A stretch of DNA of 63,745 nucleotides, the filler included, from Platydemus manokwari (Eukaryota): the NCBI GenBank assembly GCA_037951405.1. It is 5 parts of 5 records of this genome, joined end to end, with 100 filler letters (N's around TTAATTAATTAA, not from the genome) between each part and the next. Parts side by side here need not be neighbours in the genome. Positions count along the whole stretch, not along the records: positions 21,301 to 30,395 come from JBBMOY011300429.1; positions 30,496 to 40,569 come from JBBMOY011172100.1; positions 40,670 to 53,884 come from JBBMOY011796949.1; positions 53,985 to 63,745 come from JBBMOY011208654.1; 1 more part is not named here. One strand, written 5' to 3'. Position 1 is the stretch's first letter, and each line of letters starts with the position of its first letter. Of the stretch, positions 19,001 through 61,623 are shown piece by piece. Made by a program: the position numbers and the translations under genes. The notes beneath the pieces are model-generated. The model had not been told where the DNA came from. It did not search any database and saw only the letters and a program-made list of their open reading frames with translations.

Positions 19001-20922
19001 TACCAGAAAGCTTCCATCGATATGAGCAAGATCAACAATGAATCCAATAAGATCGAAGTAATGGACCAATTGAAAATTGTAAACAATATTTAATATATTT
19101 TAGGCCTGGATAGATATTGAGAAGCATAAATTAAATAAGCAATATCCAGTTGGCTTAGAATCAGTGGAATCAGAGGTTAGACTTCTGGAATCGACAATTC
19201 AGTCCATTGACAACAAACACCAACAAATACAAGATCTTAAAGCTTTGATCAATCCCATCGATAATGTTGATTCGAAGATATTGTTATACAATAAACTATC
19301 ATCTGTCAATGAAATCGAATCCAATTTAAAAGATTTGCAAAATGAGGCTGAAGAAAAAATCGTAAGTTCTCTGAATATATATAAACATATATAAATGTAT
19401 ATAAATATATAATTCGATAAAATCTGTATAATGGAGAATTTCCAATGACTTTTCTCTTTGTTTTCAGAAATCTGTTAAACAACTTCACGAGCAAATATCA
19501 ACTGCTTCAGATAACTTAAATGATTTCAAATCTTCAATTCAGAAATTCGAAGACAAATGGAAAGAATTCGTCACATTGGAAGAGTCGCCCGACAAACCAA
19601 TCGACTACACGAAACTGGAATCTGAAATCAAAGAAATGCAGTCCAATTTCCAGTTATTGAAACCAGATTTGACAAATACAAAATCGATCATTGCCAATAT
19701 CGCCGATATAAGTTCAGTCAATGCTCATTTATTGGAACCAGAACTGGAAAAATTGACAAACCGCTATCAAGCTTTATCTACCAATCTGATTCAGAAGATA
19801 AATTATTTCAACTCCAAACACAAAGCCATGGATGAATGCAAAAATCGAATTGAAATATTTGCAACTCGTCAAAAGAACCTCAAAGAGAAAGTCGATAATT
19901 TTCCACAGCCATCTTTGGATTTGGATTCTTTGGAAGATCAAATTCAAGATCTAGTGAATTTAAACCACGAAGTGGCAGATATTGAGAAAAGTTTAATCGG
20001 TTTGAAATCAGAAGTTAAAAATTTGTCCGGCCAAAATATGGAAAGTGCTGAAAAGGCCCTACAAAAAATCAATAATTTGAATGCTGCAAACGAGAAAATC
20101 GCTGATTTGATTGATGATCGTCAGAATTCATTGAGATTGCAACATAATTTAGTTACGGAATTTGAATCCAGGAAAAACGATTTTAATCGAAAATTAGATG
20201 AAGCCAACAATGATCCAGAATTGAGCAAACTCTTATCAAACTCCAGCAAGAACATAAATGAATTCACGACACAGAAAATCGATCCATTGAAAAAACAATT
20301 GGAACAAGTTGTCGATATAGGTAATAAAGCATGTAGCACAGTAGTATCGGGTTTGGGCTTTAGACATATTGAGCAAGAGATTGAGCAAGTGAAACATAAT
20401 TTCGATAAACTTATGCAGGTTGTGTCTGATATTGAAAATAATGTCGATATCAAGCTGATGAAACAGAAAAAATTCGACACCACTTTGAAAAATTTGAAAG
20501 ATTTCGTCGAAAATGTGAAGAAAGAGCTGGAGTCTGAAGAAGAACCTTCGATAGAATATCATAAAGCAAAGAGTCAATTGAATTCACATAGACTTGTTCT
20601 GGATCGATTGAAAAAGCGACAATCGAGTCTGGATGAAATCAACAAAATCGGATCTGATTTGCTTTCCAATTTGAAGGAACCAAAGAAATCGCAATGGGGA
20701 AAAGAATTGAAAGAATTGAATAAAAATTACGAAAATTTATTGAATATTGCTGAAGAGAAAAATTGTCAATATGATAGAGCTGTCAAATTATCCAAAACAT
20801 TCAAAGATTTCTATGAACCATCACTGGTTTGGCTGGATACTGCTGAAAAGAATTTAGCTAGTTTTGATACATCCCCAACAATCGATTCTTCAGAAATGGA
20901 GAGAAGAATCCAAGACTATCAA
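1099..20922 (+). CDS. spectraplakin (dystonin/MACF1/Shot/VAB-10 family), partial at both ends, multi-exon
   Basis: Exons splice in frame over short GT-AG introns: 1099-1181, 1238-1312, 1363-1527, 2533-2637, 2692-2913, 3036-3263, 3315-3563 ... 6245-10300, 10698-12058, 12118-12903, 13382-... 16617-16754 ... last donor after 20922. Plakin-domain signatures: LNWIKEKEDQQIHWPW; LIDELEMKE; EWQWILHLTHCLKTHL..YEQFF; SH3-like segment VKAICS...WKV...APSICF. These are followed by plectin repeats and many spectrin repeats (W-I/L helix A motif, e.g. LDHWLTDIDQRL, LVWLDTAEKNL). The actin-binding N-terminus and EF-hand/GAS2 C-terminus are not in the window. Confidence 0.93.
6245..10300 (+). CDS. giant plectin-repeat-domain exon of the spectraplakin (4056 nt, 1352 codons, phase 0-0)
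   Basis: Acceptor ttgcag at 6243-44, donor AAG|gtaata at 10301. Recurrent motif DP.(T/S)...(L/I)(S/T)L.EAI..G(L/I)ID typical of plectin repeats. Confidence 0.9.
11271..11860 (+). repeat. 297-bp (99-aa) near-identical coding tandem repeat spanning a 100-N gap
   Basis: gacattg(c/t)aaatgctgaaagacaaagagtattagaaaa starts at 11274 and 11571 and recurs after the gap at ~11795. The unit VDIANAERQR...DLRAMVVDH contains plectin-repeat motifs. Confidence 0.92.
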
Positions 20923-21300: not shown

Positions 21301-21692
21301 TTTTAATTAAGGTTTAAAATAAGTTAATAAATTTTAGAATTTAATATTTTGAAATTTATATTTGATTGGTTAAAATAAAGTAATTATTAAATGATTTAAA
21401 TATTTTTATCTATACCTGGTTAAAATTGACAATGGATTCTCTTTACAAAAGGAATTTTAATTTGTTTAAAAATTGCACTATTTGTTGGCATTAAATAAAT
21501 ATTAAGAAAATCGTAATAATGACTTCTTTTGTTGAAACATTATTCTCAAGCGAAGTAGCTGCTACTAACAGTAAGTAACCAAATAAATTGAGCAAATTGG
21601 CAATAAATTATAATCCATTGAATTTAGAATTATAGAGTGATTAATCGATGTTTATGTGATATTGTGTCAAGTTTATCACCAGACAGCGTACT

Positions 21693-21714
21693 GGGATTGT
21701 CAATGTTTCAGTCA
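21693..21714 (+). other. dispersed 22-nt element, copy 1 (GGGATTGTCAATGTTTCAGTCA)
   Basis: 19/22 positions invariant across this copy and those at 28467 and 57760(-). Confidence 0.7.
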
Positions 21715-22288
21715 GTAAATCCTTTAAAAAATAATTCTGATATTTGTAGTCAACTAAATGATGATAATAAATAAATAATAATAATGATAATATTAAAATT
21801 AATAAAAGTATCTATAATTTAAATAAATAAAATTATTATTATTATTATTTATTAAGTAACTATTAAAACGTGAATTAATCCTTTTAAATGAATAATTGAT
21901 TCGGAAAAAAATAATAACGACGACAATTTTTTATATATGTCGGGTGGCCTCTTTGATGTTTATAATTTTTCACCACCTTGTAATCGCATTACAAAATTAC
22001 CCTCATAGAATTTATCACATTCTGGTTTTTGCAAATGCTTTTAATATTAAATCAATAAATATCAAAGGATGTTAAACAATCAATATATCCCTTAATTAAA
22101 GAGATTTAATTGAAAAATAAATCAAGTTATTTCGTTGTAATAAATTTCAATTTCAACCTTTAAAATAAATATACGGATATCAAATAAACGAAATTGTAGT
22201 GGTAGAAGATTCGATATAACTGACATCAATTTTCTTTCTTTAATCGCAAAATGGTTCAAGGAATCATTACATTATTTATGGTTTTCAG

Positions 22289-25200
22289 AAATGAAGATAT
22301 GTTGAGATATTTATTGGATCGTGGATTCAAACGTGTTTCAGCAGCTAAAGCTTTAGAACAGAATGAATTTTACCAAGATCGTCACTGTTCCGATTTATAT
22401 GTTTTTCATCATGATGATCGAGATTGTCTGGAAGAATGTGAGCTTGTGACAAAGCAGAGATTTTCTGTTGTACAAGTAATTATAATTCATCATGAATGTT
22501 ATTTGGAAATTTTAATATCATTTGTAAAAATTTGGGTAATACTGATTAACCATAATTCCAAGCTCGTCAGTTACCGATAAGCCGATTTTGTAGTACTTTC
22601 TACTCATCAATATAACTTAAGGCATCTAATAATGATTTACCCATTGGTGGATTCAAACCAACAATTACCGTAAATTACAATTATGAAGATCCTTCATCTA
22701 TTAAGACCTCCTTCATTTATAGATCCAAAACTTTAGAAAAACCTAAATTACTTTATTCGTGTACCTAATTCGTACCTATTAAGACTTCCTTGGATTTTAG
22801 ACTGAATTTTTTGCAAAAAATGTAGGTCTTAATACGCGTTATCTATGTTATTTCACTGTACATAGTATTCCTCCATCTAACTACCACTTTTGGAGAATTA
22901 GAAAAATGTGGAGGTTAAGAGGAATTGGCTATTCGGAAGAGGAACACTTTTCCTTTTTCTAACGAACTAGGTATTTGTTGTTATTGAATCTATCTGTCGA
23001 TAATGAATATTCCCCATGTCTTCCACTTGTAATTTTACTTGTAATTCTCCTTTTTACCGGTTCAGTGCTTTAATTTAAATCATATCTAAATAATCCAATA
23101 ATAATTTATTGCATTAGAGGTACTGTAATGTCTTAAGATCTGGTAAACCAATAAAACATGTCTGAATATATTCCAATCTGTAATTTTTAATTTTCAAACG
23201 GAAAACTAGTCTCCGTGCTTAATAAACGTTTTAATCTTTTCAATACTTACGAAAATATCGTTTGATTTCCTTATAAAAATTCTGTTTTAAGTATTCTGGT
23301 TATCTAAAATTGATATTTATTTATGAGTATACACAAGGAAGCAAATTTGTTTTTCATTTAGAATACGAGTTTACTATTGTTATCCTGCTTGACCACAGAT
23401 GGACCAAATACCCCTTGATAACTGAAAAATTTGCAATTTTTCTTAATTAAAACTTCTAGTTATGACTAATAAATAATTTTTTTGGTTGGTGATTTTTATG
23501 TCTCAATGAAATAACAGATTATTTACTAACATTAGATATTCAAAGTTGTAATTGCAGGATAATAGTTTGTACATTTTTAAATAAAATTGCCAATGTACAA
23601 CATTCAAAATAATAACTCAAAGGTACTCAGAGAAACAAAAGTTCCAAAAGTCAAACATCAAATCACAATGTGTTTAACATCTGAAAGATGAAAACAATTA
23701 CAGAAATTACCGATCATAAATGACTGCTGGTTGTTGGACTCTTTTGTAGCGATTGTGCACACATTATTAGATTGATTAATTTGAAAATTTTGTTCTAGAA
23801 TATTTCATCAATTTTTTAATTATTTTTTAAAATTTTATTTTTAGCATCCCTGAGAAAAAGTTAATCGAAGCTTTACTCATCACACTCTCTCTCACTCTCA
23901 CACATAATTTATTATTGGGCTTTTATATTTATTTTCTTTCAGGATAAAAGTACTTCTTTAGCTATTCATTGTTTCATTGCCAACGTTGTCCCAGGAGAAG
24001 AAATCGCAATAGTCAACCCAACCACTCTTCTTACAGCAATTCACATGGAAGGTCTTCTTAAAAATAAATTTGGTACAGTTGTTCCTTTAGCAGCAATTCG
24101 TGTATTTCGTACACCTAAAGATGATGACGATCCGAAAATTCTATCAAAAATGGGCTCTTCAGGTAATGAAAAAGTGTCATTAGTTTGTATCTTTCTTTCA
24201 TATCTCACAGCCATCAAAATCCATACCGAAGATATTTTGACTCTCGATTCGACAAATGAAAAATATCGATTTATTAAACATGCTTTTTTCCAAGCGAAAT
24301 GTACCAGATCAGCAATTGTGAGCCCAATAGATTTCCTCGATACCGAACAAGATGGTGGGTAAAAATATTTTAAATTTAATGTTTTTACCCACTAGTTAAT
24401 TCTTCAACTGAGTCTTTCTCAATGTTGTTTTTATTTCCATAATCCAAATTGTTCAATTATTCGATAAATGTTTATTGTGATAAAATATAAATCAATTTAA
24501 AGTGAAGGATCACTATCATTAAAAGAAAAAAAAACCAAGATAAAAATCAACCAATAAATAACTCGCTTATTGTGGGATTCAACTTAAAACAACTTCAATT
24601 AATTACATTTTAACTTATTGTATGCGAGGCGTGTTGTAATTATAAATCGGTTCTATATCAGATAATTATTTTATTCATGATTGGTATCCTTAGCAATCCC
24701 GTGATTAATATTATAGTTCTTTGGCAAATTACCGTGTCCCAAATCTCGTGTATTTAATAAAACAAAGAAATAATCTTATCTTAATTTATTAGAAAAAGCT
24801 GCGTAAAAATACGTTTAACGGCAAATTCATTGCAGATATTACTCTGTTAAAGGATTATGCAATGCGAGCAACCTTGAACGGTGCAAAACCAACGAAAATA
24901 TCTGATTCCATAGTAAGAAACAGTATGATTCTTCGACAATGCTTTCGATGTTAGTTCCAATAATGAAATATAAATGACCTTCTTGATATCGAAAAGTGGA
25001 TTAAAATTAATTTTTAATTCAGTTTCCTCTATCCGAGCATTAACATATTTGACTCATTCAATATACGATGAAGAGAATGAAATGTTAATTCATAAAGCGG
25101 TAGATTTAATCAACAAAAATATGATGAAAGACACAATGGAACCAAATGGAAAATATGAGATGTTTAACAATGTTCCTCCCAATTTACCAATGCTGGTTGA

Positions 25201-25487
25201 TGATTTAACAGAAAGTGGATATTTAGTTGAAAAAAATGTCAAGTTTCCACCGTCAGCCGAAACGAATGGCTTTTTTATTTCTATATATTCCAAAGAGGTT
25301 AAAATTCTATGGAAAGTTATTTTCTTAAAGATTTTCAGATACGATATAATGTTGCCGATGAAGTGGAAAGTCAACATCCACAAGATGAAAAAGTAAAGAA
25401 AAAGAAAAAGAAAGGCGGTAATTTAATTTTGCTTTTAATATAGCTTTAAATTTTTAATTAATTTCTATTCTCTTGTTATTAGGTTGA
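22289..25487 (+). CDS. NSUN7: NSUN7-like putative RNA m5C methyltransferase, 5'-partial
   Basis: Exons 22289-22475, 23943-24162, 24211-24354, 24836-24949, 25023-25297, 25339-25417, 25483-25487 splice in frame. The peptides DRHCSDLYVF, QDKSTSLAIH, AKCTRSAIVSPIDFL, ITLLKDY, ALTYLTHSIYDEENE and PSAETNGFFISIYSKE follow, in order, the NSUN7 motifs as I recall them (HCYDVLIF, QDKSRSLAVH, PRCSGLGVSNPVEFI, EFLKDH, VVYCTCSVFPEENE, PSEITNGCFLSIL). Confidence 0.85.
22667..23126. mobile_element. degenerate pogo/Tigger-type MITE relics in the NSUN7-like intron
   Basis: taccgtaaat...attaagac / gtcttaatacgcg ends and an agaggtactgta terminus resemble pogo-family TIRs with TA; heavily decayed. Confidence 0.3.
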
Positions 25488-26194
25488 TCTCGATTTGTTA
25501 GTTGTTTATAATATTGCTGAGATTTTTCTTTAATGTTTATTTTTTGTTTTTCGAAGAAATAATATTACAAATGATTCTGAGATATTATTTCTTTTGATAG
25601 TTTTGTATTAAAGTTTTGTTCGGTGATGATTTCACTCCATTCTATTCTTAATAATTACTTATTATTTATATTATCACTACGTCTTTCAGTGATAGAATTA
25701 TGAAGCGGTAGTTTTGAGATCAACTCCGATACTGATGAAAGTACAACGAAACCGTTTTATTAGTGAATCAAACGAAGAAGTTTTACAATTTTTATATATT
25801 TCGAAGTCTACAACATATGTTTTAATCATTCCATATTTCATATACAATTTGTATTGGACCATTAAAACCTGTTGCTTTCGATTATTACCTTGTTCTCGTC
25901 AATATATTGTGATAATCGAATTAACAATTCAATTATTTATTAATTTGTCGATTTAAGCCTACTACTAGTTGACATTATTTCTTTGAAAAATTAGCATTTG
26001 GCCTTTAAGCATCTGTTGCGATTAGATCTTGGTTCCACGTCACCGTATTCATCAGATTCATGTAAACTTTAAAATGATTATATTTATCATCACTAGCTCT
26101 GAAAAATAGGTCGCATGATAGAGTATATGACTAGTTTTAAATATTTCCTTAGGCCATACAGTTTATCGAAAAATTTGAAATAATTTTTTAATTT

Positions 26195-43172: not shown

Positions 43173-45548
43173 TGTGTATACAAAGAATATCGATTAACAA
43201 AATTCTTTAACATTATATTATTATTATTANNNNNNNNNNNNNNNNNNNNNNNNNNNNNNNNNNNNNNNNNNNNNNNNNNNNNNNNNNNNNNNNNNNNNNN
43301 NNNNNNNNNNNNNNNNNNNNNNNNNNNNNNNNNNNNNNNNNNNNNNNNNNNNNNNNNNNNNNNNNNNNNNNNNNNNNNNNNNNNNNNNNNNNNNNNNNNN
43401 NNNNNNNNNNNNNNNNNNNNNNNNNNATTTAATTTAATTTTTTATTTACTATAATTATAATTATTATCATTATTATACTTAACAAATAAATAATTATAAA
43501 AATATAAATCTAAATGAAAATTCATTGAATCCATCATACATGGTATACTGAAAATATTATACATTACATGGCAAATCGAAAAGCCAGAAGAAATCGTTAA
43601 GTATTGATACAGAAAGATAAGAATCACAACCAGTGAATGGCAAATCATATCATGGTAATTCGTCACTGTTGTTGTTCATCCAGTTCTGGAGTTTCGATGC
43701 ACCTCCATCATTGGTGATATTGGAAATATTTGTGTTGATTTATATTCCATTGAAAATATATATTTTTTTGGGTGAAATTTCATTAACGGTTTATTTGGTT
43801 TTTGGAATATTTTTCTCCAATTATTTATCATCAACGATATTTCTCAATATTTCACATCCATTCATGATCATATGTGTATCAAAAATCTCACACGTGATCA
43901 CGTCATCGATTGCATCACATTTCTATTACCATACAACAAACACCATTCCACAATTCACCAAACGACACTTTCGGAAAAATCTACATCAATGATATTTCAT
44001 CACCAAATTTTCATCGTGGTATTGACAAATAAATAAATNNNNNNNNNNNNNNNNNNNNNNNNNNNNNNNNNNNNNNNNNNNNNNNNNNNNNNNNNNNNNN
44101 NNNNNNNNNNNNNNNNNNNNNNNNNNNNNNNNNNNNNNNNNNNNNNNNNNNNNNNNNNNNNNNNNNNNACATAGTTATCCAAACCTCCATGTTGTCATAT
44201 CAACCAGCCGGATTGCTGAATAAATCTTGGGAAATAACAGATCACTGGGCAAGGAAAACAATCAGCCAATAAGAAAACACACAACACAGTACGGAAAAAA
44301 ACAAATAAGCACAGAAACAATATAAACGCCCAAATCGGTTGAGATTTATCGCAAATTCTACAATATCTGTAAGAGAAATTCTTTGAAAACTTTCTCGTCT
44401 AATGAGTAATTTTTATGTCTTATTTAAAATTATTTTTAAATTTTTTGTTAATAATACCCGTAAGGGAATAGCTACTACATAAAATTTCATCGTCAAAGTT
44501 CCCAAAGACTATTTGACTTCCTTCAAAACTTAATTTTTCTACATACCTTCATTTTCACCAGAATTGGATGGCTACAGTTTTCAACAGAGATATAAATTTC
44601 AAATCACTCAAATTTAAAATACTTCACATTCGCTATAATTGTATTATTAAATGTTGTAGAGTTATATCAATAAATGTATCAGATCGATTGTTATTTGACC
44701 TCGTGTTCAATACACTCAAACTGCACTATGAAACGGTGATGAATGGAATATTGGTGGAACTATCTTACCATATATCGACCCTCACAGCTTAAATGATATT
44801 CATTAAATAACTACATTCTATCTTCATATTTACAAATAAATTCAAAATATAAAATATATATCAGAAATAATTTTGTCAGTTTCAAACAATATCCTTACAA
44901 CAAAATAAACAATGATTTATTAAAACTACTTATATTAATAAATATATATATTCATAAACTCTCATCTACACCACACTATTTACTCCGATAAAGCCAATAC
45001 AAGAGTGAAAATAACGTATTTAATTCCTAGAAATCGGGTAACAGTAATGCAGCTGTTCAGTGAAACCCATTTTATTAAAAGTAAAAATTATTCCAAGTTT
45101 ATGTCGACGAGAGGTATTTCATTAAACCTGTTCCCAACTCCTGTTTAGTGAATTGTCTGAACAATGTCAATCATTTTTGTTAAAAAATAAATATTGTCAT
45201 CTATTGTTTTCTACCAAATCGATAGAAATTGCCATCATGTTAATCACGGAACTATGACAACATGAATGATAAATGTTGGAATAAAATATAAACTATTGGT
45301 GAAAGAAGAACTGAAATGCAATTATTCATAAACTGATGATAGTGCTGCATATCACGAAGTGAATCAGGAAGAGCAGTAAAAAGTGGAAAATTCCTCTTAA
45401 CTTCAAAGAATAATAAAATTAGTTCGTCATGACTTTATCATTCTCTCATTGTGAGGACTTATAATGAATCGAAATTTGAATAATTTTAAAGGCCGACTTT
45501 TATAAAATATTAATTTTATCAAATAATGATAAGTGAAATATATTTTCT

Positions 45549-45620
45549 TGTCGTGACTTTTCATTTTGATTTAAATTGGTGCTTTATAAAATAGTAGCCG
45601 CTCACAGTCAGATTAGCGAA
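45549..45620 (+). repeat. solo-LTR-like dispersed repeat, copy B (5' part)
   Basis: tgtcgtgacttttcattttg...ttataaaatagtagccgctcac aligns with copy A. Confidence 0.5.
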
Positions 45621-46046
45621 ATAATTTTCATTGTTTATCGATTATTTGCTCGCAGAAAATATTCATCTTTCGAATACTATAATTAACTCTCACTGTGAAA
45701 GCACTTAAGTTTTAATTTTCGAGACTTATTTCGAGATTATTCGAGAAATATGATATTTAATTACTCCATTAAAACACATTTAATATACATTGTGTAGATG
45801 AAGACTGAATTGTCATTAGCTACTTATCAATGTTTTAACAATAATTTAGTTTGTAGAAATACAACAAATTAATTTGTAAATTTATCCCATGGATATAATT
45901 AAAACAAAAGAATAGAAAAATTATGAAAGCATTAAAGTGTGTTTAACTTGATATAAGTGGGTAAATAACTATTTAAAATGTATCTCAATGAGTAAAATTT
46001 AATCTTTCCTTTGCAAACACTTTTAACAAATTTTAGATTATTTCAC

Positions 46047-46530
46047 ATGAGGATTTGTCAATATACAAGTGTCTTATTAACTTTATTGACCATTCCGTTT
46101 GGTCACAGCATAATATTACTATCCAGACATAAACCAACAAACCAGTCATCTTTGTACAATGTTGGCAGAGAATCAAATCTAGCAAATGATGGGTCATATA
46201 ATCAAGTTGCATTATATAATAATCATGGAAATATGAAATATGACTGCACCGCCACCAACAATCAATCAACCAGCTATTGGCTTGTGGACTTAGTGGACAA
46301 TTGTAAAATTAATTACATCGTTATCTACAATAGAGACGATAGTTTTGGAGATCGATTGATATCAGCCAATGTTATTATTATAGAAAACAATGGATCAGAG
46401 AAATCAATACAAAATATCACATCTAACCAGAAAATATATAACATTTCAACTGGTAATACAATTGGCCGTTATGTGAAAATTCAAGTCAGAAAAAAGATTC
46501 TATCACTTTGCGAAGTGGATGTGTTTGGAG
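46047..46530 (+). CDS. secreted F-type lectin (fucolectin/FTP) domain exon
   Basis: ATG at 46047 with signal-peptide-like MRICQYTSVLLTLLTIPFGHS, then KPTNQSS, LANDG, YWLVDL, IYNRDDSFGDRL, GRYVKI, LSLCEVDVFG; donor G|gtaaaa at 46531. Confidence 0.85.
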
Positions 46531-47964
46531 GTAAAATATATTTTATCAAATAATATTCATATTTCATATTAATAACTTGATCAATACATTAAAGCTTCAT
46601 ACAACATAAATATATAAAATCAATTATTATGTACAGTTATGGAAATCATTTTCTGTCACTGTTTAATTGATTTTTTATTTTATATTATTTCTTTAATTAA
46701 TTATTGATTATATATTTAAACCAATTTCATAAATATTTCATATTTAATGAATCAAAGGTTTATCCAATACAGGAACACACATTTTTCATTATTTTTCAGA
46801 TGAATTAAAATTTAATCAAATATTTAAATGGTTCTGGTTTTAATTTTATTGATCATTTTACCTGTGATTGATTAATGTTTCGAAACTAGTTCAGAGGCTG
46901 ATTATAATATATTATTGGAGATATAAATTATTGATTGAGTGCTGTTAAATCTGTTGTCATTATCTTGATTCTGTAAATGATTTAATCTGTATTTTGACTA
47001 AAGAAAATAAACTGTCATTTAAATGGTTCCGTGGTTATTCTATCTCAGATAAATATTTTAGTGTTTATCAATACAATGAAGTTAATGAATTTTCATTTTA
47101 CTAAATATGTTTAATAAATTAAATTATTAAATAAATTCGGTGGGGACACCAGGTCTTGTTGAGACATGCACAGTAAATGCACTCAAACGATTTCGAACTA
47201 AACATTAGTCCTGTCAGACATTTACTTTATGACAAAGTAAATCATAGAGGAAGAAAACTATGAAAAGAAAATTTTGATAAAGAAAAAAAGTTAAAGACTA
47301 GAAAAGAAAGTGCAAGGAAGCAGAATAACCAGTAAAGAACAATACTGAGAATATATATATGGAAATAAATATCAGTGACCGAAAATATTGCTGGCTACAA
47401 GAGTGTAGCAATGATTTTAAAGAATTATTAAGAACCAAATGAAGAATAAATGGAAAAAGAATTCACAAAAAAGAAAAAAAACGCAGGCCCAGGAAGAATT
47501 AGCGAACATTGAAAACATGATTTAAAGATAACAGAAAAAATAGAGGAAAACTTTGATAAAAATAATCGAAAAAAGCTAAGAACAAACAAAATACTAAATT
47601 GATGAAAGGTTACATGAAGGTTTTGCGAGAAATATAAGAAAAGTTGTCAAAAGGAATCCATTCGAGAATATAAGTAATAGGTAAGACGTAAAGAATAAGA
47701 AAAGGAAGTAATGTGTGAAAAGACATAATGAAAAACATAGATTTTACAATGAAAAAAGTATAAATATTGAAGAACATAAAAACAAACTCGAAATACATGA
47801 AGGCAAGATGAACCTACAATTACGGGACATTATTATATTGAAATCGATAGCACATCTCTTCATTACTGTGAAAATTTTTAAATGAATTAAATTTTTAGAG
47901 TTATTTTAGATTTTATAAAAAATTATTTTGATTTGTTTATAAATATTTTTTAAATATATAATTT

Positions 47965-48240
47965 AAGATCGTGATTTTCCAGCTTGTTTTCGAAGTCATT
48001 TTTATAAAATAATAACGGCTTACACGGCCAACACGCATCCGGATTCGAATCTTAGCAATGACTTAATATTAAATCATAGAAGGAGAAATATATTGAGAAT
48101 ATATAAAGAATATACAAAGAAGACGTGGGGAAGATATATAGGAGATATAAAAATATATAAAGCAGATAGAATAATTAAAGATTTTATGTAGATAAATATA
48201 CAGAGCATTCGATACAAGGACAATTACGGTAAAAGTTTAT
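47965..48240 (+). repeat. solo-LTR-like dispersed repeat, copy C
   Basis: cgtgattttcc...ttataaaataataacggcttacacggccaac followed by an AG-rich tract like copy A. Confidence 0.5.
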
Positions 48241-48899
48241 TCATTAAAAAGAAGGAAATCCAAATTGCCGCAATCCCTGATATTTCAATCGACTCAAACC
48301 AAGGAACGAAGCTTTTCAAACTTCGACGTTAATAAATGGTAAATCAATGAGTGTTATAAATATCCAATGATATTTTGGGAATATTAATGTAAATCAGTAA
48401 AAAAGATTGAACTAATTAATAAATGAAGCTATGCAAATAAGAATGAAACTGATTAAAGCCCTTATCATGAATCGAATAAAGATTAAACTGATCGAAGCCG
48501 TAAAATATAACTTGAGAATTTTTTCAGATCAAATGAAATGAGAAAATAAGAATGGGATGAGGATAAAATAATCTATTTTTCTATTCCTTTTTCAATATAT
48601 TTCCGATAAAAGAAGTTGTACAGATTAAAAATATAAAAGTGTTTTCCAGAATAATATTATATATTTTAATAAATTAATTAAAAACATTTTAAAACAATTA
48701 AAAAAATTAATTAAAAATTAATTAAAAAGTTAATTAAAAACACTGATTATTTATCATTTAATTACAAAAAATTTCATAATAAATTGAAATTAGCATTCGT
48801 AAACTATAACACATATTATTATAATAACGAGGTTAAATAAACAAACATATTACAGTTTAATAAAAATAATTGATTGGTGGATTAGTTTAGTTTTTTAAA

Positions 48900-50940
48900 T
48901 AAATATTATGTCTGTGAATTTCAATCATGTAACTGACGACCACGCCAGAACTGTCCGAGATATGATAACAGATACATTGAAAGGCAAGAGTCCCAAGAAA
49001 AATTGGGCTGGGTTGCTGTCAAGGATAGAGTTCTGCATCAACACAATACATCAATCAACACAGAAGTTCTCTCGATTCGAAATAATCTATGGTTAGAAGA
49101 TCAATGACAGTACGGATGTGAGTCACAAGAACCAGACCCAATATGATATTGCAGCAGCAGTTAGAGAAAGTTTTAAAGTGACAGCCAACATAATGTCTAA
49201 CCGAGACAAAGGAGAAAAAAAGATCGAATTTTTTGCATGACAGAGAAGAATCTAATGCGCGTAGATTTCTATAATAGGAAGAAGAATAGATACCAGTACG
49301 AGGCTCCTACCTAATTACCTGGCAGACAAACAAGTGGATATTACCAAGGCTTATTACCAAGTCGAACTAAGTTAGAGGTCCCAAGATTGCACAGCCTTTA
49401 GCACAAGAACCGGCCAACACTCTTTCAACAAATTCCAGTTTGGACTATCTATTTTTCAAAAACTAATGCATATGCTGTTGAATGGATTGATCTTTAAGAG
49501 CGTTATGATATATTTGGATGATGTGCCAGTTTTGGTGCCATCGGGGCTGTTCATATCCAAGTTACTGAAGAATGAACAGAAGTAGCTATTGTTTACGAGT
49601 CTTGGTTACTGACAAGTCACGAGACAGGATACTGTGTTACCAGAAAGGGACTACTGGTTATCCACGTGCATGTTATTTATCTTAGGCAAGACTGTTACGA
49701 GTAGAAATTCATTGTGAAGAGCGATCACAAAGCCCTTGAAAACCCGACACGAAAACTGATCAGTCCTCAGAGGGATTGTCTAGGATTAACAAGACACTAT
49801 GTTCCCAGTGCAAGACGAGGCATAGTGGAGTAAAGACGGATTTAGTCCAAATACAAATATAGTAAGAGATAATGCAGAAAATCCAGAGATAGTGGAGACA
49901 CTAAGATTTCTAAATGGTGAAACTACTTCTAAATATTTACTTTCGATAATTGAAGATAAGCTGAAGGTGGTAGACAGTACGCTGATCTAGAAAAAGAGTA
50001 GAGTTTGGCTGCTATAATACCGAAAACTTTTTCCGCTCAATTTTTCAAGACAGTTCACTAGGACCTCTGCTACTTAGGCTCAAAGAAAACCTTCGCATAT
50101 TTGGCCGCAGTTTTTATTTTATTTTTATTTTATGTTCAACACTATCAAAGAGTTACTGAAATAATGTATTATCTGTGTAAAGATAAAGGATGATCAATCC
50201 AGAACTAAGGCCTTTCCTCTCCGTAGGTTATGCTGAGTTTCAAGTGAACATTACTCGAATTCACACAATGCATTGTAACAAGAAATATCTTGTAGTCATT
50301 ATCAGCAGATTCAATAAACTGATGAGCCTCACTGCTGCTACATCTGAGCACGTAGATTTATGGTTTTGAAAATTAGAAACAATTTGGAATCAAATTTGTG
50401 ACGGGAGGCTGGTTCAAAATTTGGAATCAAATAAGCATTCAGTCAACCATGCCAGCATCAAACAAACGAGTAAGTAGAAATAATCATCGAGACTGTTCGA
50501 GATATGACAACAGGTAACCTAAAAGGTAAGAGCCCCGTGAAAAGTTTGGCTGAATTTCTGCTAAGGATAAAGATCTGTCTCAACGCAACACATCAAAAAA
50601 CAACAAAGTTCTCGGATTTCAAGATAATCTAAGGGCGGAAGATCAATGTCCATATGGATGTGAGTCACAAGATTTAAACTAAAGATGAAAATACAGCGGC
50701 AGCTAGAGAAAATTCTAAAATGGATTCCAAAAGAATGTCTAACCGAAGAATACAGAATTATTCAGGTGGGATAAATGGTGCTAGTTCGTTTAGATCCTTA
50801 GAAGAGCAAGAAGAATGGATTACAGTAAAAATATAACTACAGAACCAAGTCAGACAGACAAGAGGAGATTCAATCCTCTTGCGATAAAATCTAGACCATT
50901 AGAGTGGCTGAAACGATTGAGGGGGACCTAAGAGGAGGCT
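48900..50940 (+). mobile_element. decayed Gypsy pol relics (integrase tail, RNase H, integrase, polypurine tract)
   Basis: WAGLLSRIEFCINTIHQSTQKFS.FEIIYG (integrase tail); ASFGAIGAV...YCVTRKGLL...FIVKSDHKAL (RNase H); second integrase tail VRDMTTGNLKGKSP...; purine tract gaggggg...agaggagg at ~50920-50938. Many stops. Confidence 0.85.
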
Positions 50941-52507
50941 AGTAACGTGGTATTCACCAGTCGATTTTAAATTCTAAAAATGGATTAATATGAAAAAGAA
51001 TCTGACTGGCTTTTGGCACTCTCTTTCATTGGATCTATATGTGCCAACCTTTTATACGTTATTTTCCCCGTTCCTATAAACATTTTGGCTGACCTTGTAA
51101 CCTAATCAATAAATCGAACACAATATCTTAAGTGACATGAATAATTGCAATAAGCAGTGGCATACAAAAAGTACAAGAATTTTAAATTTGAATTATTTTA
51201 AATTGTACACTGAGGGTATTTGATAAACCAGTTTTGAGAACTGTTGCTACCCAACTCTATTGAAAAAAAATGTATTTAAAAATTTTAAAATTGAACGAAG
51301 TCAAATTTTCTCTGGGAATTTTGATGTTGGAATTTTATGAAGTATTAATTCCTTTTAGAGTATTATTAACAATAAAAACAATTAAAGATAACAAATAAAA
51401 TTAATTCCTTTTGGTCGACATAATTAGATAAGAATGGGTGCTTATCTTCTTTTAACCAAAAAATTATTTGTCTGTCTTTTTCATTATTTTAAATTAAATT
51501 TTTGTGCAGTTTGTATTATGTTTACTCCTGATATATCAATTATTATAAATTAAATTATAAATTAAATATAATTAGTTAAATTCTTTTATCATTTTCGACA
51601 TTGTGAAAATGTTAAAATATTTGCAAATTTCTTTTATAAAAAGTCTTGTCTTCTGATTTATTGAATATAAATATACTGATTGTCGCAAGAGTTAACTTGA
51701 TTTTGTTAGGCGTTTTATTTTTTTATTCCACAATTCCAATATTCAGATCATCATATCATATTTCAGCAACATCGACATATATGTCTAGCTCATCATAAGC
51801 GATTGTTCGTCTAGCTGGTTATAAAAATAATTCATTTATTAATATTAATGTTAGACATTGATATTATTCTTTTCATCTTACATTTAGATTCTTTATCAAC
51901 TGATAATTGTACTTAATTATACTTATCTTTATCGGCTTTTATCACCCCCTTCAAAATGGTTTTAAAGAATTTAATAAAATAATCTATATGGATTTTTCCA
52001 ATCCATTCTACAATTTAAACATTTTATTTTAGGACCTTTTTGCCTTTAAACCTATTTCTTTATCTAATTAATCAATTTTCATTGTTGGTCCAACATTTTT
52101 AAATCTAATTTTAATTTCTTTAAACAATATATTTTCAAGGAACAAGTTTAAATTAAAAATGTTTCAAAATTTGTTTATTGTGGCATATTACAATATTGTA
52201 CCGAGCATAATAAACAGTTTATTCTTGTAAACTTTTAACGAATATTTTGTACTGCATGTCCAGATAAAATGGCAAAAAGGTTTTCAAGTACTGCTCCATG
52301 CATTCTTAAACTTATCAAAATCTTATGGTGATACTGTCGGCTTAAATATTATGTCTTATATTGACGTCATATTAGAAAAATTTATCATTGTTTATTAATT
52401 GTTTGTTAGTTGAGATAATTAATAATTTTAGAGTTTTCTCATTATAATGTATTGAAATGATAATAAATCGTTGACAAATACCGACAAATAAAATGTTAGT
52501 CAGGAAT

Positions 52508-52510
52508 AAT

Positions 52511-52553
<43 letters not shown>
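52508..52553. repeat. (TAA)n microsatellite
   Basis: Direct reading; explains the poly-Leu ORF 52372..52569(-). Confidence 0.9.
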
Positions 52554-52554
<1 letters not shown>

Positions 52555-53229
52555 AACTTTATTGGACATTTATTCCAGCGTATTCACAAGCATGCAATTA
52601 TACAAATATATTATTTTATTATTTAATTCAAATGGAGGTTAATTAATTTGCATTAAGTTGTATTGTTGAGCATTAAATTCAGATGATGAAAATTAGAAAA
52701 CAATTTATAAAATCATTTTAATTATAAATAGTTTTTTCCATACTTCTACTAATGATTGTATCAATGATTGTTACAGTGTAAACCAATGTTTATGTTCCCA
52801 GTAGTTGGAAAATGGTAATTCTCACAATTTCTCAATTAACACTTTGCTCAATTTGTTTTTTTACTATAGATAAAGGTGATTTAAATATATTGGCGTGATA
52901 AATAATTGGATTTAATGTTTCACTATTACGAGTTATTTGAGCTTTTCATGAAATTTATATCGTTACCTCAGTTGATGTTGAGGTTTACGACATTCGATGG
53001 ATTATAGATGCGAAACTAAGAATTAAAACATTTTATCTTATATATTTAAAGTTCAAATTTATTATTAATAATTTGTCAATCCTTGTAGGCCGTATTATAC
53101 CTTGTATTATATAAATAGGAAACGAATTGAAAATTATGAGTATGAATACAATTATGGAGATAAAATAGTTTATAAAAATAAATATTTAAAATTTATTCAA
53201 TTTAATATTTTCACAACACTCTACTTTAA

Positions 53230-53475
53230 AATCTTTAATTTTCCTTGCATTATTAATTGATACTTCATCGAACATTCTACATATTTATCTACTTGCAAAT
53301 ATCTAATTCTCCTATCTTGTTAATATCTTCTCTAAATTGTTTCTAGATTTCCTTCAAATTCATAATGTTTATTCTTTCATATTCTCAAAATCGAATCTAG
53401 AAACTGTGGTCGGATATAAGCCGTTACTATTTTGTGAAAGACGCATTGAAAACGAATGTGAAATTTACGACCCGA
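53230..53475 (-). repeat. solo-LTR-like dispersed repeat, copy D
   Basis: Reverse complement contains gttttcaatgcgtctttcacaaaatagtaacggcttatatccgacc...gattcgatttt, aligning with copies A and C. Confidence 0.5.
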
Positions 53476-53808
53476 ATTTCGTATTTAAATACGATTATAT
53501 AAGCAAATTAATATAGTGTGATACAAAATCAAAATATATTTATAAAAAATATTTTAAAATTTAATTTAATTTCACATTATCACAATCTCGTTGATTAGTT
53601 TAAAAGAAATTGTTTAAACAAAGAAACACATCACAAAATCAATATAATATTTTTAGAAGCAATTTTCATGTTCTAATAGTATTTAGAAATGTAATCAAAA
53701 TATGAATCTCAGAAACTTGTTTTGATTTGTTATTATTCATAAAGGTACGTTAATAAATTCCATTGTTGTTTTAATTATTTGCTCCAAATTTTAAAATTAT
53801 TTTAATGA

Positions 53809-53884
53809 TACCAGGTTGAGTCAAAAGTTATTCATGTTTTTATGCAGGTATTTTATTAACACAAATTGTTATAACGCTGAACAT
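53809..53884. mobile_element. mariner-like terminal fragment at contig end
   Basis: TA-ccaggttgagtcaaaagttatt resembles a mariner TIR start and runs into the spacer. Confidence 0.4.
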
Positions 53885-53984
53885 NNNNNNNNNNNNNNNN
53901 NNNNNNNNNNNNNNNNNNNNNNNNNNNNTTAATTAATTAANNNNNNNNNNNNNNNNNNNNNNNNNNNNNNNNNNNNNNNNNNNN
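53885..53984. other. artificial contig-joining spacer
   Basis: 44N-TTAATTAATTAA-44N. Confidence 0.95.
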
Positions 53985-54052
53985 TTTATTCATTGAAATA
54001 CAAATTTTAACTCATTTTTGTAAAAGCCGGAATCATACTAATACACCTAATA
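53985..54052 (-). mobile_element. opposite end of the same mariner family as 40452-40569
   Basis: 54022-54052 is the exact 31-bp reverse complement of 40452-40482; the interior differs. Confidence 0.8.
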
Positions 54053-57000
54053 TATTTCTGATTTGTACTTCATTCCTTGAAAATGATATTCTTTTCTTTA
54101 ATTCATTTAATCCTTCAGGTAGTCTTCTACCGGCTTCTAATTCTTTAACTTTTCTGCATTGTATTGAATATTTCTAGGTGTTTGAGTTATCATATTTTGC
54201 TGTCCACACAATCAATATCACATTGAAGGTTGAACATTCCGATCCTGAATCTCGAGGCTTCTTTCATCATTACTATTGCTTGAGAGAATGTAATAGTGCA
54301 ATGAGAACGTTCTGCAGTAATAGATCAAGTTTACAAATATAGTAACAGATGACTAGTTTGTAGATAATATTTGGAGAATTCAGTGTTTCTTCAAAAAGTC
54401 AACCAATCCATGATGATGTGAGTAGTGCACTATTTGATGTATTATTCTCTGTTATTTTAGAACTGTTACTATAGCAATTAATGCTAAATACGAAAATTTA
54501 TATTTCAAAATCACAATCAATTACAAAATCCTAATCATCACTAGACACAACAAAAATTCACCAGATGACAAATGGATATTCAAAGTATGATGGTGTCAGC
54601 ACCCGAACGTTAAAAGGAAATACAGACGTCAACCACAAAGACTAGTTGTCAGAAAAAAAGCCAAACAGAATATAATTTACCTTAAAAAACCGGCAGAAAT
54701 TCAACTTTTTATAAGCTTGTCGTGTTTTCATTTGATGACTTTCCATTCGATAAATCTGTTTTCACGTCTATCTGTTGATAAATTTTCTTATATCTCTGGT
54801 GCCGTTAGCGAATCTTTGTGTTTGTTGTCATTTTACGGTGTGCACCAGTGACTTATTGAATTCTAAATATGGATTGGTATATAAAACGAATCTGATTAGC
54901 TATTAGCATGTGCACCTTTTGAATCAGTGTACGTCGACCTTTTATATTTTACCAGGAATCTTAATCTTAATTGCTTGCTTTAAAAACCCGACCTCCTATT
55001 TAGGTATCATATAGAGGCACTATCATTTTGAGATTAACAAGATTGAAAGCCAAATGATTCAATCAATATCAGCTATCAACATATTTAAGTCCTAGAAAGA
55101 TTACAAGCCGATACGTTTTCCTCAGCAGTAGATATACCAGTTATTCATGTCGAGATCCTGATGAAATAGCTGTTTCTTTCATTGATTAAGAAAATTCCCT
55201 GAGAACATTTTAAATTATTTCGTAAATATGATTATATGCTTTTTCTCAGGAATATTTGAAAATTACCTTGCTCTAAAATACGGATAAAAATATCATTATT
55301 GACCTGTACTCGTATTATAGCTTCATTTTATTAGTAATTAAGCGATGTCTAATCCGATCCATTATCATAACAATCGTAAATTGCTCTTTGATGGAGATTT
55401 CTACCTGAAAATTCCAAATGAAATTTATATCTCTTTAATATATATCGAACGATATTATATTTCTCCAAACAACTTTCAAGCCACAAATCAATTTAACAAG
55501 TACATATTTACAAACTCTAAGAAATCCTGTTAGTTTAAAAATTATTTTAATTACTGTTTTGAAGAAAATCACAGATATTTGAGAAAAATAATTCAAGAAA
55601 TTGCTCCAGTTCGAGTTTAGTTTAACAAGAAATTGTGTGATCCTTTGATTGTTCCATGATTTTATTCCTGTGGGAAATATATGAATTAATTTTTAATATT
55701 TATCAAAAAATAAGAGTATAAAATAATTGCTAAAAAATTGAAATTTGTTTTCCTTAATAAGTGTAAAGAGGTTGATACAAAGCCAATGAGAACTTGATGA
55801 ATAAAACATAATGAAATTATCATCAAGTCAGCGTCGATAAAGAAGAACATTAAAAGTCATCATGAAAGAGTTGAAATCGAGCAACATAAAAGACAAAACA
55901 ATTAGAGGTATGAGTTTTCAAAAATGGTGAAATAGTTCAAATTTATTTCTTTAAGTAGAAATTGAAAACAAATTGAAAAGTATGTTTAATTATAATATTA
56001 AAACAAATTGTCGTTGCTTAATATTTTAGTTAATTGGAGTATTTAAGAATTAAATTTCCAAAATTTAAAATTTTCACGTATATAAATAAATTAACATTCG
56101 AAAGTATTAACGAATTCTTGACTTTAAACTTCAAAAATTAAGAATTCAAAAAATTTAATCGTCAAAGCCATAATATATAGAATTCGAACAGCCAAACTTT
56201 CGAAAAACAAATGAAACAAAAATAAATAACGGTTATCCAAAAAATAATTTTGATTTTTTACATTTCTAATAAATAAACTATAAAATAAATAAAAGCAAAA
56301 TTGGGTAGGTAAATAATAATCGACATAATGCAGGCAGATAGGAGATTCACAATTCGCCAAAAGTAATTCATAATGTATCATAACAAATATCAGCAAGCTG
56401 GTTAGAACAAATTATAAATACACACTAAAGCTACCATGGTAATACACAGTGTTTCAATAACAACCTCAGTGGATCACATAGGAAATAAATAAATAAATAA
56501 CAATTACAAATAAAAGTAATAAAAATAAAAGGTATTTATAAAACAGAAAAACGTAGAAAAATTACATCAAAATTCATTTTTACAAAAAATTATCAATATC
56601 AAATTGTACAGGAATATTTACAGAAACAGTCGAGCAATATTTGGAACCATATTCAGACAACAATTTCTAAACACGTACTCAGAACATTTCTCAGATTGAT
56701 AGTATTTCAAATCTGAATTGAAGTGACCTATTGTATTAAAAATATCGCATTCTAATCGAATCCGATCAGTTGAAATCGATCTTCTTCAACGAAGGCAAAT
56801 AAAATCTTTTAAAAAACTTTATAGTTCGTCATTACAAGAAAAGTCGATAAATGATAAAACCATATTTTCCACGATAGCAATCCACCTGTGTAAATAATAG
56901 TTATTATATGTTATCATGGATTGATTATAATCTATATTTAATGAGGTCACTGCAAAGAAACAAATATTAAGTGTTAATTCTAATCCACATTTGTACGATC

Positions 57001-57738
57001 GTTAATAACATCAATAATCTTAGCTGTAGGCATGGTTATAGAATTATTTAATTCCAGACATCGGCAGAAGATTACTAATAAAATTTTCCAATATTATTTA
57101 CAGTAATTAACTTCATTGAACGATCAAATGAAATTTTCAATTAAATCAATATATTATTCCAACATCTATGATTCGTGAATAAATTATCAGTTTTTTCCTT
57201 CACACTGAAAATTTTAATAAACGCAAAAGATTTTTCACTGAAATTCGACAGATATCGATATTGTTGAAATTAATCAATGGAATTTATTAAAACAAAAAAT
57301 GAATCAATAAAATCGAATCTGTAATTAAGAAATAATCGATATGTTATTAAATTTTTTTAATATATATACATATTTTTTCATTAAATTGTTCTTCAACTCA
57401 ACTTCTGTTTTTTCCGTATTGACTTTTCGAGATTGATTTCGAGGTGAATTCACCCTCTTTAATATCATACAATATATAAATTAGCTTTCTAATCGATCTG
57501 AAATTTCTTTTAGTAAATCATTAAGAAATTAAGAAAAAATCAATATTTTTATGAGTGCGCAATAGCTATGGTAATATGGAATCAAAATCTAATCACAACA
57601 ACTGCTCATGGCAAAGTGGTGAGTCTTAATAATGTTTACATGAATAATTGTGGATTTGAATTATAATTTGCTGAATTCAAAATTCAATACACATCATTAT
57701 AATTATCTAAGTAAGCGCTAAAGTTTTTGTTATTTTAT

Positions 57739-57760
57739 TGATCGAATCATTGACAATCCC
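57739..57760 (-). other. dispersed 22-nt element, copy 3 (GGGATTGTCAATGATTCGATCA on - strand)
   Basis: Plus strand reads TGATCGAATCATTGACAATCCC. Confidence 0.7.
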
Positions 57761-58571
57761 GGCTGGTTTCCCATACGTTTCAGCACATCGACGAAAGGTG
57801 ACACTAAATTTCATTTGTCAATGTATTTCTTGCTTATTATTTGATTTGATCCCGTGACCACTTCATTAACTCCATTGTTATTCAGCTCTGTAAATTGAGC
57901 AACTGTAATGCTTGTATTTCTATGCTAGACCAGAAAACATTAACATCAACATCATAGTAATCAAAGCAAATCAAAACAAGTATTTAAAGGTAAAATAACT
58001 TCCTAACAATCCTAATTTTTTTCAATATTTTCTCTAACTAAGGATTAAAAAATTCCCGTGATCATATTACCTAAATATGTTTTTATTGCGACCGATTTTT
58101 TGGTCATAAAACCTTTAGAATTTATTGATTAGTTCCATACAAGATGTATTGGTAAAACTCTAAACATAAATTCAAGATCAATTCCACTAAACAGAGACAT
58201 TGATGTCAATCTCTGTTCTTCTCGACATTCACCAATAACAAATCAATCAAAAAAAAATATTTTTCCCCGTTTATATCATTTGATAAAGATAATCGAATTT
58301 ACAAAAAACCATTTTGCTCACATCTATCAAATAACAAAGTTCCCTAACGATTCCATTCATAATTATACTTTACACTACCAGAATGATTTTGTCCTAAATT
58401 AGCTGATGTTGAACGACATATTCAAGATTTTAATTCCCCAGAATTTGCAAAAAGCAAATTATAAATCTTATTGACAGTTGGTTGGTAATGTCAGTTATTA
58501 TATTCAATGAATTAATCTCTGATAATGTTATGCCTATCGATTTTCTTGTAATATATATTGATTATATAATA

Positions 58572-58884: not shown

Positions 58885-61623
58885 CTATACAATATAAAGT
58901 ATAATACTAGATTTTAAAAATAAAATAAAATATTAATATAAATACCTTTCATAACCCCATGTCGGGTCTCTACAGTGATTGTCAGAATTTCAATCTAGAG
59001 ATATAGAACTGAAAAATGTTTCCAAAATATCCATTCGATTAAATACTGTTAAAAGTTTTTCCCAACACTTAATCGAAAGAATCTAAAACTGTGGATTGTT
59101 AAAATATGGCGAAAATCATTGAAAGTTGCACAGAGATTAAAAATGAATTATAAAATATCACTGTTGTCAGGTCAAAGATCGTTATTCCAAATGAGTTACT
59201 AGGCAGTCCATTCAGAGAGGATTGAAAACCATGCTGTGATTTTGACTTTTGATAGTATGTCTAATTAGATTTATAAATAATAATATAATCATAAATAAAA
59301 TTCTGTAATAAAATAAATCTATCCAAATTTCGAGTATGGTGCAAAAATCAATATATTCTTAAAAATTACACTCTATTTTATTCTTTCATGAATTTTTAAA
59401 CAGTGAATTTGATATAACATTTAAAGTTAAAAATAAACATTTCTAAAGAGATAAAAAATCTACTTTCGAATTAAATTGAAAATCAATTCCTTTACTGTTA
59501 TAAAAATATATATATTTAAAACAACATTTTTTTATGATAAATATATTTTCCATAATGTAACATTGCTCTCTTAGAAATATATAAAGTTGGAGTTTCTAGT
59601 TGTTCTTGCATGTACCTCCACGGTGTCTCTTCTTTATCATCTGCCTTCTCTAACCTCATCATTCTGAAATCACGATAAATTTTGTTTGTTCCAACTGCCA
59701 GTATGGTTTACCACATGTTTTTAATAAGTTTATTGATTCTTTTCATAATTATTGGTTTGGGTTTGACATTTTTGATCACGTTATTTCTTCCAATACATCT
59801 TTGCAACCATTGTAATTTCCGGGTTCTTCAAGCTTGCTATATAGCTGCCTGGTGCATGATGCAAATTGTTGCAGTCCAACAGTTTTTGCTGACAAAATCG
59901 TATTCATAATTTTGAATACCTATTTCTTAGCTTGACATAGTCTGTTGTAATATTTTTTATTAATTAAATATTTATTTCAAAACTTATAATTTTGAATTAA
60001 TTTTTATTGCGATTATTTCTGATTTAATTTGTAATAATAAATACCAGATAATCAGAAATATTTTTTGATTGATTTCGGAAAATATCAAGTCAATCCAGTC
60101 AACCTGTTCAGGAAGGCATGAGCTTGAATATTATCAATAAATTTCGTTCTGTCCGTGTGATAAAATTCGATTTTAAATGAAAATCAAATAAAACTGTCAA
60201 AACACAGAACAACAATTTTAATATTTATAAAAAATTAAAATTGTTGTTTTTAAAAAGCTATATTATCATTTATATAATTAATTGTTTGTAAAATTTGTAA
60301 ATCCATATTGCATTGATTTATTAACAATTTTATTAAGAGTACATATTTTTGAATTTTAAGAGCAATTCAATTTATATAATTTGCTTTTAAAATATTTCTT
60401 ACGGACCACCAATTTAAAGCTAAAGGGCAATTAGTTCATCAATTACTGGAGATTAGCAATCTCTGCAATGGATTAATCAATATTTAAACATAATGATAAA
60501 TATTACCGTTAAAACATTGTGTGAAGCAGAAAATCATATTTCTGGTTTTTTGTGAAACCAGAAATGTTTCTCGTGAATTTTAGATGATAATCACAAATGG
60601 AAAGAAAGGGAAAAAATAATTAGAAACTTCTCCAAAAATTAATAATGGTTTATCACGACGATATATTCTAATTATGTAAAAATGATGGGAAAAAATCGTA
60701 TTTTCTCATCGAAAAGAGAGAATTATCACGTACAATTTAGATGATATTATATAAACAGAAAAGGTATTGCGAGATGAGATTTCATGAAATTGTCTTCAAC
60801 TGGGAATATTCAATAAAACGAGAAAGAATTTAAATATTTAAAGCAATTTTTTTCACGGACACCCAGTAATTCTACTAGCGATCGTGGTATTTTCATTCAA
60901 TGAGGTTTGTAAAATAATATTTTCTTTAGATATGGAAATAAACAATAAGAAATTTAATAAAAAGATAAGAAATATACAGGTAGGGAATATGAATTGTGAT
61001 TAATAGGATCACATTAAGAATCCATGGGGCAATATTTATAATTATTTGTCATTGTTAAATTTCGAAATTGCCACAGAAACAGTAATGCATTTCTTGGAAA
61101 TTGAAATCCAATCAAAAAATTCTTGACGATGAGAAATTTGTTTCTAGCAATACAATTAATTTTACAAATAGATTAAATTTAAAAATCTTTCATTCGAAAG
61201 GAATCCTAAAAATATGTTTATTATGATGCTTATTCCCCTTTTAAAAATTCTTAAAAAGGAATATTTGAAGATCAACTAACGAAAATTAATTATCAAATTT
61301 ATATAACAGTACTTCAATTGTTTTTTTATTGTTTTTAAGAACTGCTTTATTCTCACAATTTTAGATGGCCATTTGAGTTCATTATCTGGGGTACTAGCCA
61401 GAGATGGTGTAATAACCACAATATTTATATTCGATATATAATCATATCGATAAGGAAATAAGTGCAAATGCATGTAGAGAAATCGATACATGCAAGGATA
61501 TAACATATAGTATGATAAGAGATATGTATTGATTTACAAAAAAACTTTTAGCCAGAAGAAGCTTTATTAAGGAGACATTGATTAATTTAAAAGATGATAA
61601 ATATTTAATGGAGATTATTAAGC

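Follow-up and report, generated by a model that had tools for sequence, protein, structure and literature searches.

A dispersed 22-nucleotide motif in the flatworm Platydemus manokwari, tentatively read as a protein-binding DNA site

The genome of the flatworm Platydemus manokwari contains a 22-nucleotide (nt) motif that we describe here from a single stretch of DNA. This stretch, the window, spans 63,745 nt of GenBank assembly GCA_037951405.1 and consists of five segments joined by four spacers of the form N44-12 nt-N44; its DNA is AT-rich, with a G+C content of about 28%. Full copies of the motif occur in the second and fifth segments (21301-30395 and 53985-63745). It is a real dispersed motif, recurring far beyond chance; it is apparently undescribed, and of a familiar kind. 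Since the window was selected for the motif, the density seen here is an upper estimate.

The three full copies lie at 21693..21714 (copy 1, plus strand), 28467..28488 (copy 2, plus strand), and 57739..57760 (copy 3, minus strand). The 22-nt pattern has 3 exact matches in the window and none in 100 dinucleotide shuffles; with up to 3 mismatches allowed, no further match appears within the 64 kb. An initial annotation of this DNA had listed three full copies at these places and strands, in two separate assembly segments and with an invariant first 13 nt, and all of this is borne out: the first 13 nt are identical in 3/3 full copies, and variation falls at motif positions 14, 18, and 19. The unit is motif-sized, with 19-20 of 22 positions identical among the full copies and background-level identity outside (24-40/100 gapless identities between their flanks). 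Local alignment of the flanks yielded nothing above background except one AAT-microsatellite match, in keeping with the earlier description of the flanks as unrelated. Across the window, 19 13-mers with at least 4 G+C occur at least 3 times; apart from the motif, they stem from tandem repeats or from a single family with a member in coding sequence.

Copy 1 lies 575 nt upstream of the first recognized exon of an RsmB/NOL1/NOP2/Sun-type (RsmB/NSUN-type) methyltransferase-like gene (22289..25417, plus strand), which we take to be NSUN7. The exons are placed at about 22289-22480, 23943-24358, and 25007-25417; the N-terminal part of the profile (positions 1-216) was not found within segment 21301-30395, and the last candidate exon terminates in a GT donor. 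Because of this exon map, copy 1 is likely in an intron of the gene, with the GGG strand of the motif as the sense strand. For the exon at 23940-24356, 10 relatives were found, and all 5 that carry a name are flatworms (Dicrocoelium, Heterobilharzia, Rodentolepis, Mesocestoides, and Macrostomum), which by itself makes a flatworm host likely; a tree of 10 rows, with no outgroup from beyond the flatworms, sets the exon apart from flukes and tapeworms and contains no well-supported set. Past the last candidate exon, a partial copy of the motif follows at about 1 kb and copy 2 at about 3 kb. Around copy 3, no gene was recognized in the fifth segment. Among 110 reading frames of the two copy-bearing segments, none gave a Pfam match over the curated cut-off of the family. 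The places of the full copies appear non-coding, in agreement with the initial annotation. Two further origins were tried and rejected. Translated from the reverse strand, all three copies give [IT]E[ATS]LTIP, but with identical third codon positions, unrelated flanking residues, and no Pfam family over cut-off; an adapter artefact does not fit copies that differ among themselves and sit inside segments.

Beyond the full copies, weaker sites are present. The partial copy is an exact 15-nt match at 26461..26475 (plus strand), in which the right arm is disrupted or displaced by a single nucleotide. Its presence agrees with the initial annotation; its strength alone is only marginal, a run of at least 15 nt being found in 9/200 null windows with the full copies masked (p about 0.045) and its matrix score of 13.9 bits being reached by the top match of 37% of 120 null windows. 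Two extra sites appear when the middle of the motif is relaxed. One of these, at 58975..58996 (plus strand, arms 58977-58995), lies 1.2 kb from copy 3 in the opposite orientation; it keeps the arms and the spacer ends, has a changed spacer middle, carries a 7-bp inverted repeat in its flanks, and is a probable copy. The other, at 20605..20626 (minus strand, arms 20606-20624; the 20626 site), is a weak candidate that also keeps the arms and has a changed spacer middle. It falls inside the open frame of a plakin coding exon and so may be due to chance; as a copy, it is doubtful. The plakin gene itself is large and of MACF1/shot type (1-20930, plus strand), with a 4.1-kb plectin-repeat exon whose identity to most of the nearest relatives is only 19-24%. 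Three near-identical copies of a 124-nt sequence surround the N gap at 11656-11755 and may be an assembly artefact.

Several local features accompany the copies. The 30 nt on the 5' side of copies 1, 2, and 3 and of the 58975 site have G+C contents of 0.43, 0.37, 0.53, and 0.50, above background (background fractions 0.09, 0.24, 0.01, and 0.02), and this is not so at the partial copy; such G+C-raised flanks may mark small regulatory islands. AATAAA occurs within 62 nt downstream of 3/3 full copies, versus 15% of random windows and 0/3 of the weaker sites over that span, and is a lead only. About 60 nt upstream of copy 3, a half-site at 57811-57819 forms a 9-bp inverted pair with 57749-57757 that has no equivalent at the other copies. 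Copy 2 has a perfect 5-bp hairpin (28442-28453) 13 nt upstream of it, after which the minus strand carries a run of six T.

What we call the arms, GATTG and CRRTC, are retained in the extra sites, 9 nt apart as in the full copies. When the arms are taken as a 7+7 pattern, 5 loci are found at a spacer of 5 and none at 30 other spacers (range 0-30). Both arms together with 5/8 spacer bases, the full copies being masked, occur at 2 loci where 0.025 are expected (P about 3e-4); here the arms are those named in the initial annotation, the spacer is the consensus, and the 5/8 threshold was chosen after the data had been seen. Copies are found in both orientations, and a different spacer middle leaves arms and spacing unchanged. 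Spacing that stays fixed regardless of strand and gene context, as at these 5 loci, is what a dimeric or multi-finger site calls for. The sites have mixed settings (a likely intron, gene-free DNA, the antisense strand of an exon), so that no common transcript context is seen.

From the recurrence, sharp ends, and fixed spacing of the motif, we infer binding, a protein, and a function. Of the explanations considered, the most likely one makes the 22-mer a DNA-level site at which a nuclear protein or complex, sequence-specific and belonging to this lineage, would read two inverted arms, an interpretation drawn from sequence to which we give a probability of about 0.45. A motif-sized unit, in which arm letters are kept rather than pairs, with one spacing and both orientations, fits a protein-binding DNA site. 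The putative protein would read GATTG and CRRTC as inverted arms 9 bases apart; it may be dimeric or multi-finger, with the bound arms about 14 bp apart, center to center. The full copies, which have GG and an unaltered spacer, would be the high-affinity sites and the remaining sites weaker ones. Such sites could act as enhancer, promoter, or chromatin-architecture elements, both in introns and between genes.

Inverted arms can also pair in RNA. The motif would then be an RNA stem-loop: a 5-bp upper stem closing a loop of 9 nt, with a bulge on the 5' side and a lower stem whose sequence is free. An RNA-binding protein would recognize it within introns or untranslated regions; we regard this as rather unlikely. 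Several observations speak for it: both right-arm changes of the full copies keep G-U pairs on the GGG strand, just as the A>G changes had first been described, the core of copies 1 and 3 cannot pair fully on the opposite strand, and copy 1 likely lies on the sense strand of its intron. Flanking pairs are present at copy 2, at the 58975 site, and at the 20626 site. Lower stems over 5 sites give a Fisher p of 0.043 with 12-nt flanks and of 0.016 with 20-nt flanks, the latter in part from hairpins beside the core and not around it; taken alone, the lower stem is significant only at the 58975 site. However, wobble-keeping changes are often expected from transitions alone, and the 22-mers and 42-mers fold no better than shuffles (5-bp stem predicted at -2.8 to -3.1 kcal/mol; z versus shuffles -1.4, -0.9, and +0.1). 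A compensatory change is seen in 0/5 stem pairs, only 4-6 sequences being compared: among four sequences, two pairs are altered on one side to U-G and none on both sides. Arm sequence kept without compensatory change is expected if bases, and not pairs, are read.

The hairpin first proposed for this motif is weakly supported, as a predicted 5-bp stem in which 2/2 changes are wobbles but which does not exceed shuffles. Lower stems had been described at copies 1 and 2 and denied at copy 3; with the core forced, enclosing pairs are indeed present at copy 2 and absent at copy 3, which has no lower stem, but they are absent at copy 1 as well. Copy 2 alone folds with its flanks into a long, 56-nt hairpin (z -3.6) that the other copies do not form. 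The extra sites alter the loop and keep the stem letters, and proteins that read loops usually need the reverse, the loop being kept rather than the stem letters. In its short upper stem, its bulge, and lower stems that vary between copies, the motif resembles the iron-responsive element (IRE) and other small regulatory hairpins. An IRE, in contrast, has a bulged C and a 5-bp stem that closes a CAGUGN loop, an arrangement absent here, and in the extra sites the loop varies and not the stem. Rfam covariance models (IRE, selenocysteine insertion sequence (SECIS), cis-elements, hammerhead ribozyme) gave no matches in the window at E <=1, and of 13 weak matches at E <=10 none overlaps a copy. The initial annotation, likewise, had recognized no known microRNA (miRNA), IRE, or SECIS in the motif.

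That annotation had also raised a second RNA-level idea, in which the motif is the target or trigger site of one 22-nt small RNA, reminiscent of the trigger sites at plant PHAS loci; a variant makes it the mature sequence of a miRNA family. Its length of 22 nt, its invariant first 13 nt, and A/G changes that are wobble-compatible with a single guide agree with this idea, which we nevertheless hold to be highly improbable. The copies are intronic or intergenic, and none lies in a recognized exon on the would-be target strand, save the doubtful 20626 site; the extra sites disrupt the would-be seed or central pairing. A star arm in the 300-nt flanks is not above background (best null fraction 0.045 in 16 tests). 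As to a miRNA, a long hairpin is found at copy 2 only, where 14/22 positions are paired and the 22-mer extends into the loop, no precursor is common to the copies, and an Rfam miRNA match is absent at the sites. Because the copies are intronic or intergenic and share no precursor, and because the extra sites break seed or center, the trigger-site claim is poorly supported. RNA-dependent RNA polymerases are reported to be absent from most flatworms examined, with finds in three free-living species only, and Piwi is lost in parasitic flatworms (PMC8191739).

The motif may also have no present function. As the relic of a mobile element, it would be the terminal hairpin or footprint of a former miniature inverted-repeat transposable element (MITE), Helitron-type element, or short interspersed nuclear element (SINE), which we judge unlikely. 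The substitution pattern fits neutral change, and decayed transposon pieces exist in the window, such as a Tc5-type helix-turn-helix (HTH) at 42456-42581 (E 3e-4). SINEs can spread a motif to tens of thousands of copies in a flatworm genome, the figure for schistosomes being more than 38,000 hammerheads borne by SINEs (PMC2770079). But no two copies share flanking sequence on either side, terminal repeats and target-site duplications were not found, and the longest direct repeats flanking the three full copies measure 3-4 nt. The absence of terminal inverted repeats and target-site duplications stated at the outset is thereby upheld. As a MITE or transposon end, the motif again shows no terminal inverted repeats, target-site duplication, or shared internal sequence among the copies, and copies 1 and 2 have the same orientation. 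The A-richness on the 3' side is not significant at 30 nt. For a tRNA-derived SINE, a B box is matched in 1/3 copies, an A box on the 5' side of the B-box-like part is absent in 3/3, and no tRNA was found. Among the decayed elements of the fourth segment, the Tc5-type match belongs to a Tc5/Tigger-type transposase remnant at 42000-42910 (plus strand; HTH_Tnp_Tc5, just under cut-off), and a likely decayed retroelement occupies 48900-50750 (plus strand), with a 255-nt direct repeat of 75% identity and a faint match to a reverse-transcriptase RNase H (E 0.035).

The same B-box-like part suggests an isolated TFIIIC B box, a site of the extra TFIIIC (ETC) type, on the opposite strand and with a 3' extension. 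The reverse strand of copy 3 is an exact match to the 9-nt consensus (taken from PMC12498455), and chromatin is shaped by ETC sites (PMC5340127). This likeness is, however, confined to 1/3 copies. Two variable motif positions hit the normally invariant T and C of the box, so that invariant bases are changed in 2/3 copies; the invariant part of the motif lies outside the box, and there is no A box. We think a B box highly improbable.

The closest specific resemblance is the SNAPc element. As a special case of the DNA site, the motif would be this lineage's SNAPc-type proximal sequence element (PSE), a promoter with thousands of scattered copies, each driving an unrelated short RNA: a flatworm counterpart of the mini-genes for Piwi-interacting RNAs (piRNAs) at nematode intronic loci. 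This boldest of the readings is very unlikely. The fly version, PSEA, is described as a 21-bp element with a rigid 5' half, the invariant bases ATTC-CAA, and variation at positions 14, 19, and 20 that chooses the polymerase (PMC1761439). The motif, at 21-22 bp, likewise combines a rigid 5' half (the first 13 nt, 3/3 copies) with a variable 3' half, and it matches 6/7 of the invariant fly bases at equal spacing in 3/3 copies. The piRNA loci of nematodes are driven by a motif of SNAPc origin and, in some species, lie dispersed in introns (PMC6436959), those of the Pristionchus type offering the likeness to our probably intronic copy; the GTTTC core of the ancestral nematode motif from the same source is present in copy 1.

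The details of the fly comparison are less favorable. A score of 6/7 is reached by 10% of random 22-mers, and alignment to a fly U6 PSEA (PMC4227766) gives p 0.02 against shuffled PSEA and 0.08 against 21-mers of the window. This near-chance match needs a one-base gap and leaves a G mismatched at PSEA position 6, among the most conserved in insects. A predicted PSE of S. japonicum (PMC5460494) is dissimilar, with 10 matches where at least 10 arise in 641/2000 shuffles. Unlike fly small nuclear RNA (snRNA) promoters, the motif has no TATA at fly positions 34-41 (absent in 3/3 copies) and no PSEB-like block, the shared downstream columns numbering 12/80 (P 0.12); no Rfam snRNA was found downstream of the copies.

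Searches beyond the window covered sequence collections and the literature. The exact pattern has 0 matches in viral contigs, 2 in metagenomes, and 1 in prokaryote genomes; each of these 3 falls within an open reading frame, and chance alone would give about 1.1 in 596 Gb, so they were rejected. Planarian promoter motifs have been reported (PMC10558129), and the present motif could be among them. Topic searches of a literature mostly comprising papers outside subscription found no published description of the motif. Searched for in both orientations, the 13-mer turns up in a primer for fungal Cyp51A (PMC11716504) and otherwise in work on unrelated subjects, and the 11-mer has no occurrence in literature mentioning 'schistosom'.

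Other genes share the window with the motif, and the plakin gene, a CDKL-type kinase, and an F5/8 domain mark its DNA as animal. A CDKL2-like kinase gene with several exons (36071-40560, plus strand) contains one intron of about 2.8 kb. Its CDKL-type kinase exon points less clearly to flatworms, the best named matches being to an annelid (76%) and a nemertean (73%), followed by flukes (68-71%). At 39040-39090, the CDKL intron holds three tandem 18-nt repeats. A 389-codon frame (30888-32054, minus strand) has at its N terminus a weak match to a CCHC zinc finger (PF25491, E 0.008, under cut-off) and ends in a long Asn-rich tail. An exon at 45996-46550 (plus strand) encodes an F5/8 type C (galactose-binding) domain.

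The DNA-site interpretation can be set beside long dispersed factor sites such as those of RE1/REST, CTCF, and ZNF143. Like these, the motif is about 20 bp long, has sharp ends and unrelated flanks, occurs in both orientations and in full and partial versions, and is found in introns and intergenic DNA; unlike these, it consists of inverted 5-bp arms around a 9-nt spacer. We know of no sequence match between the motif and any of the three. Its length is within the range of known multi-subunit sites, for example the 21-bp fly PSEA (PMC1761439). Several points weigh against the interpretation. The firm copies number only 3, and selection cannot be demonstrated from 4 substitutions over 22 sites (two fall at one site with P 0.25). 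Scored with the three-copy matrix, the 58975 and 20626 sites are not significant: 28% and 98%, respectively, of 120 null windows have a top match that reaches the score. Nor is the perfect 5+5 palindrome, taken by itself, exceptional in 18,432 tests. The wobble compatibility of both right-arm changes and flank pairing slightly above shuffles (Fisher p 0.016-0.043) favor RNA. A known factor with the 22-nt motif was not found in the literature covered.

What the motif means for the biology of this lineage depends on which explanation is right. As the relic of a transposon, it would be ordinary. As a SNAPc-type promoter of short RNAs, it would extend motif-driven small-RNA genes beyond nematodes. 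As a DNA site for a nuclear protein, a high-information 22-bp motif with at least 3 sites per 64 kb would provide an easy pull-down handle for an abundant, lineage-specific regulator or chromatin organizer.

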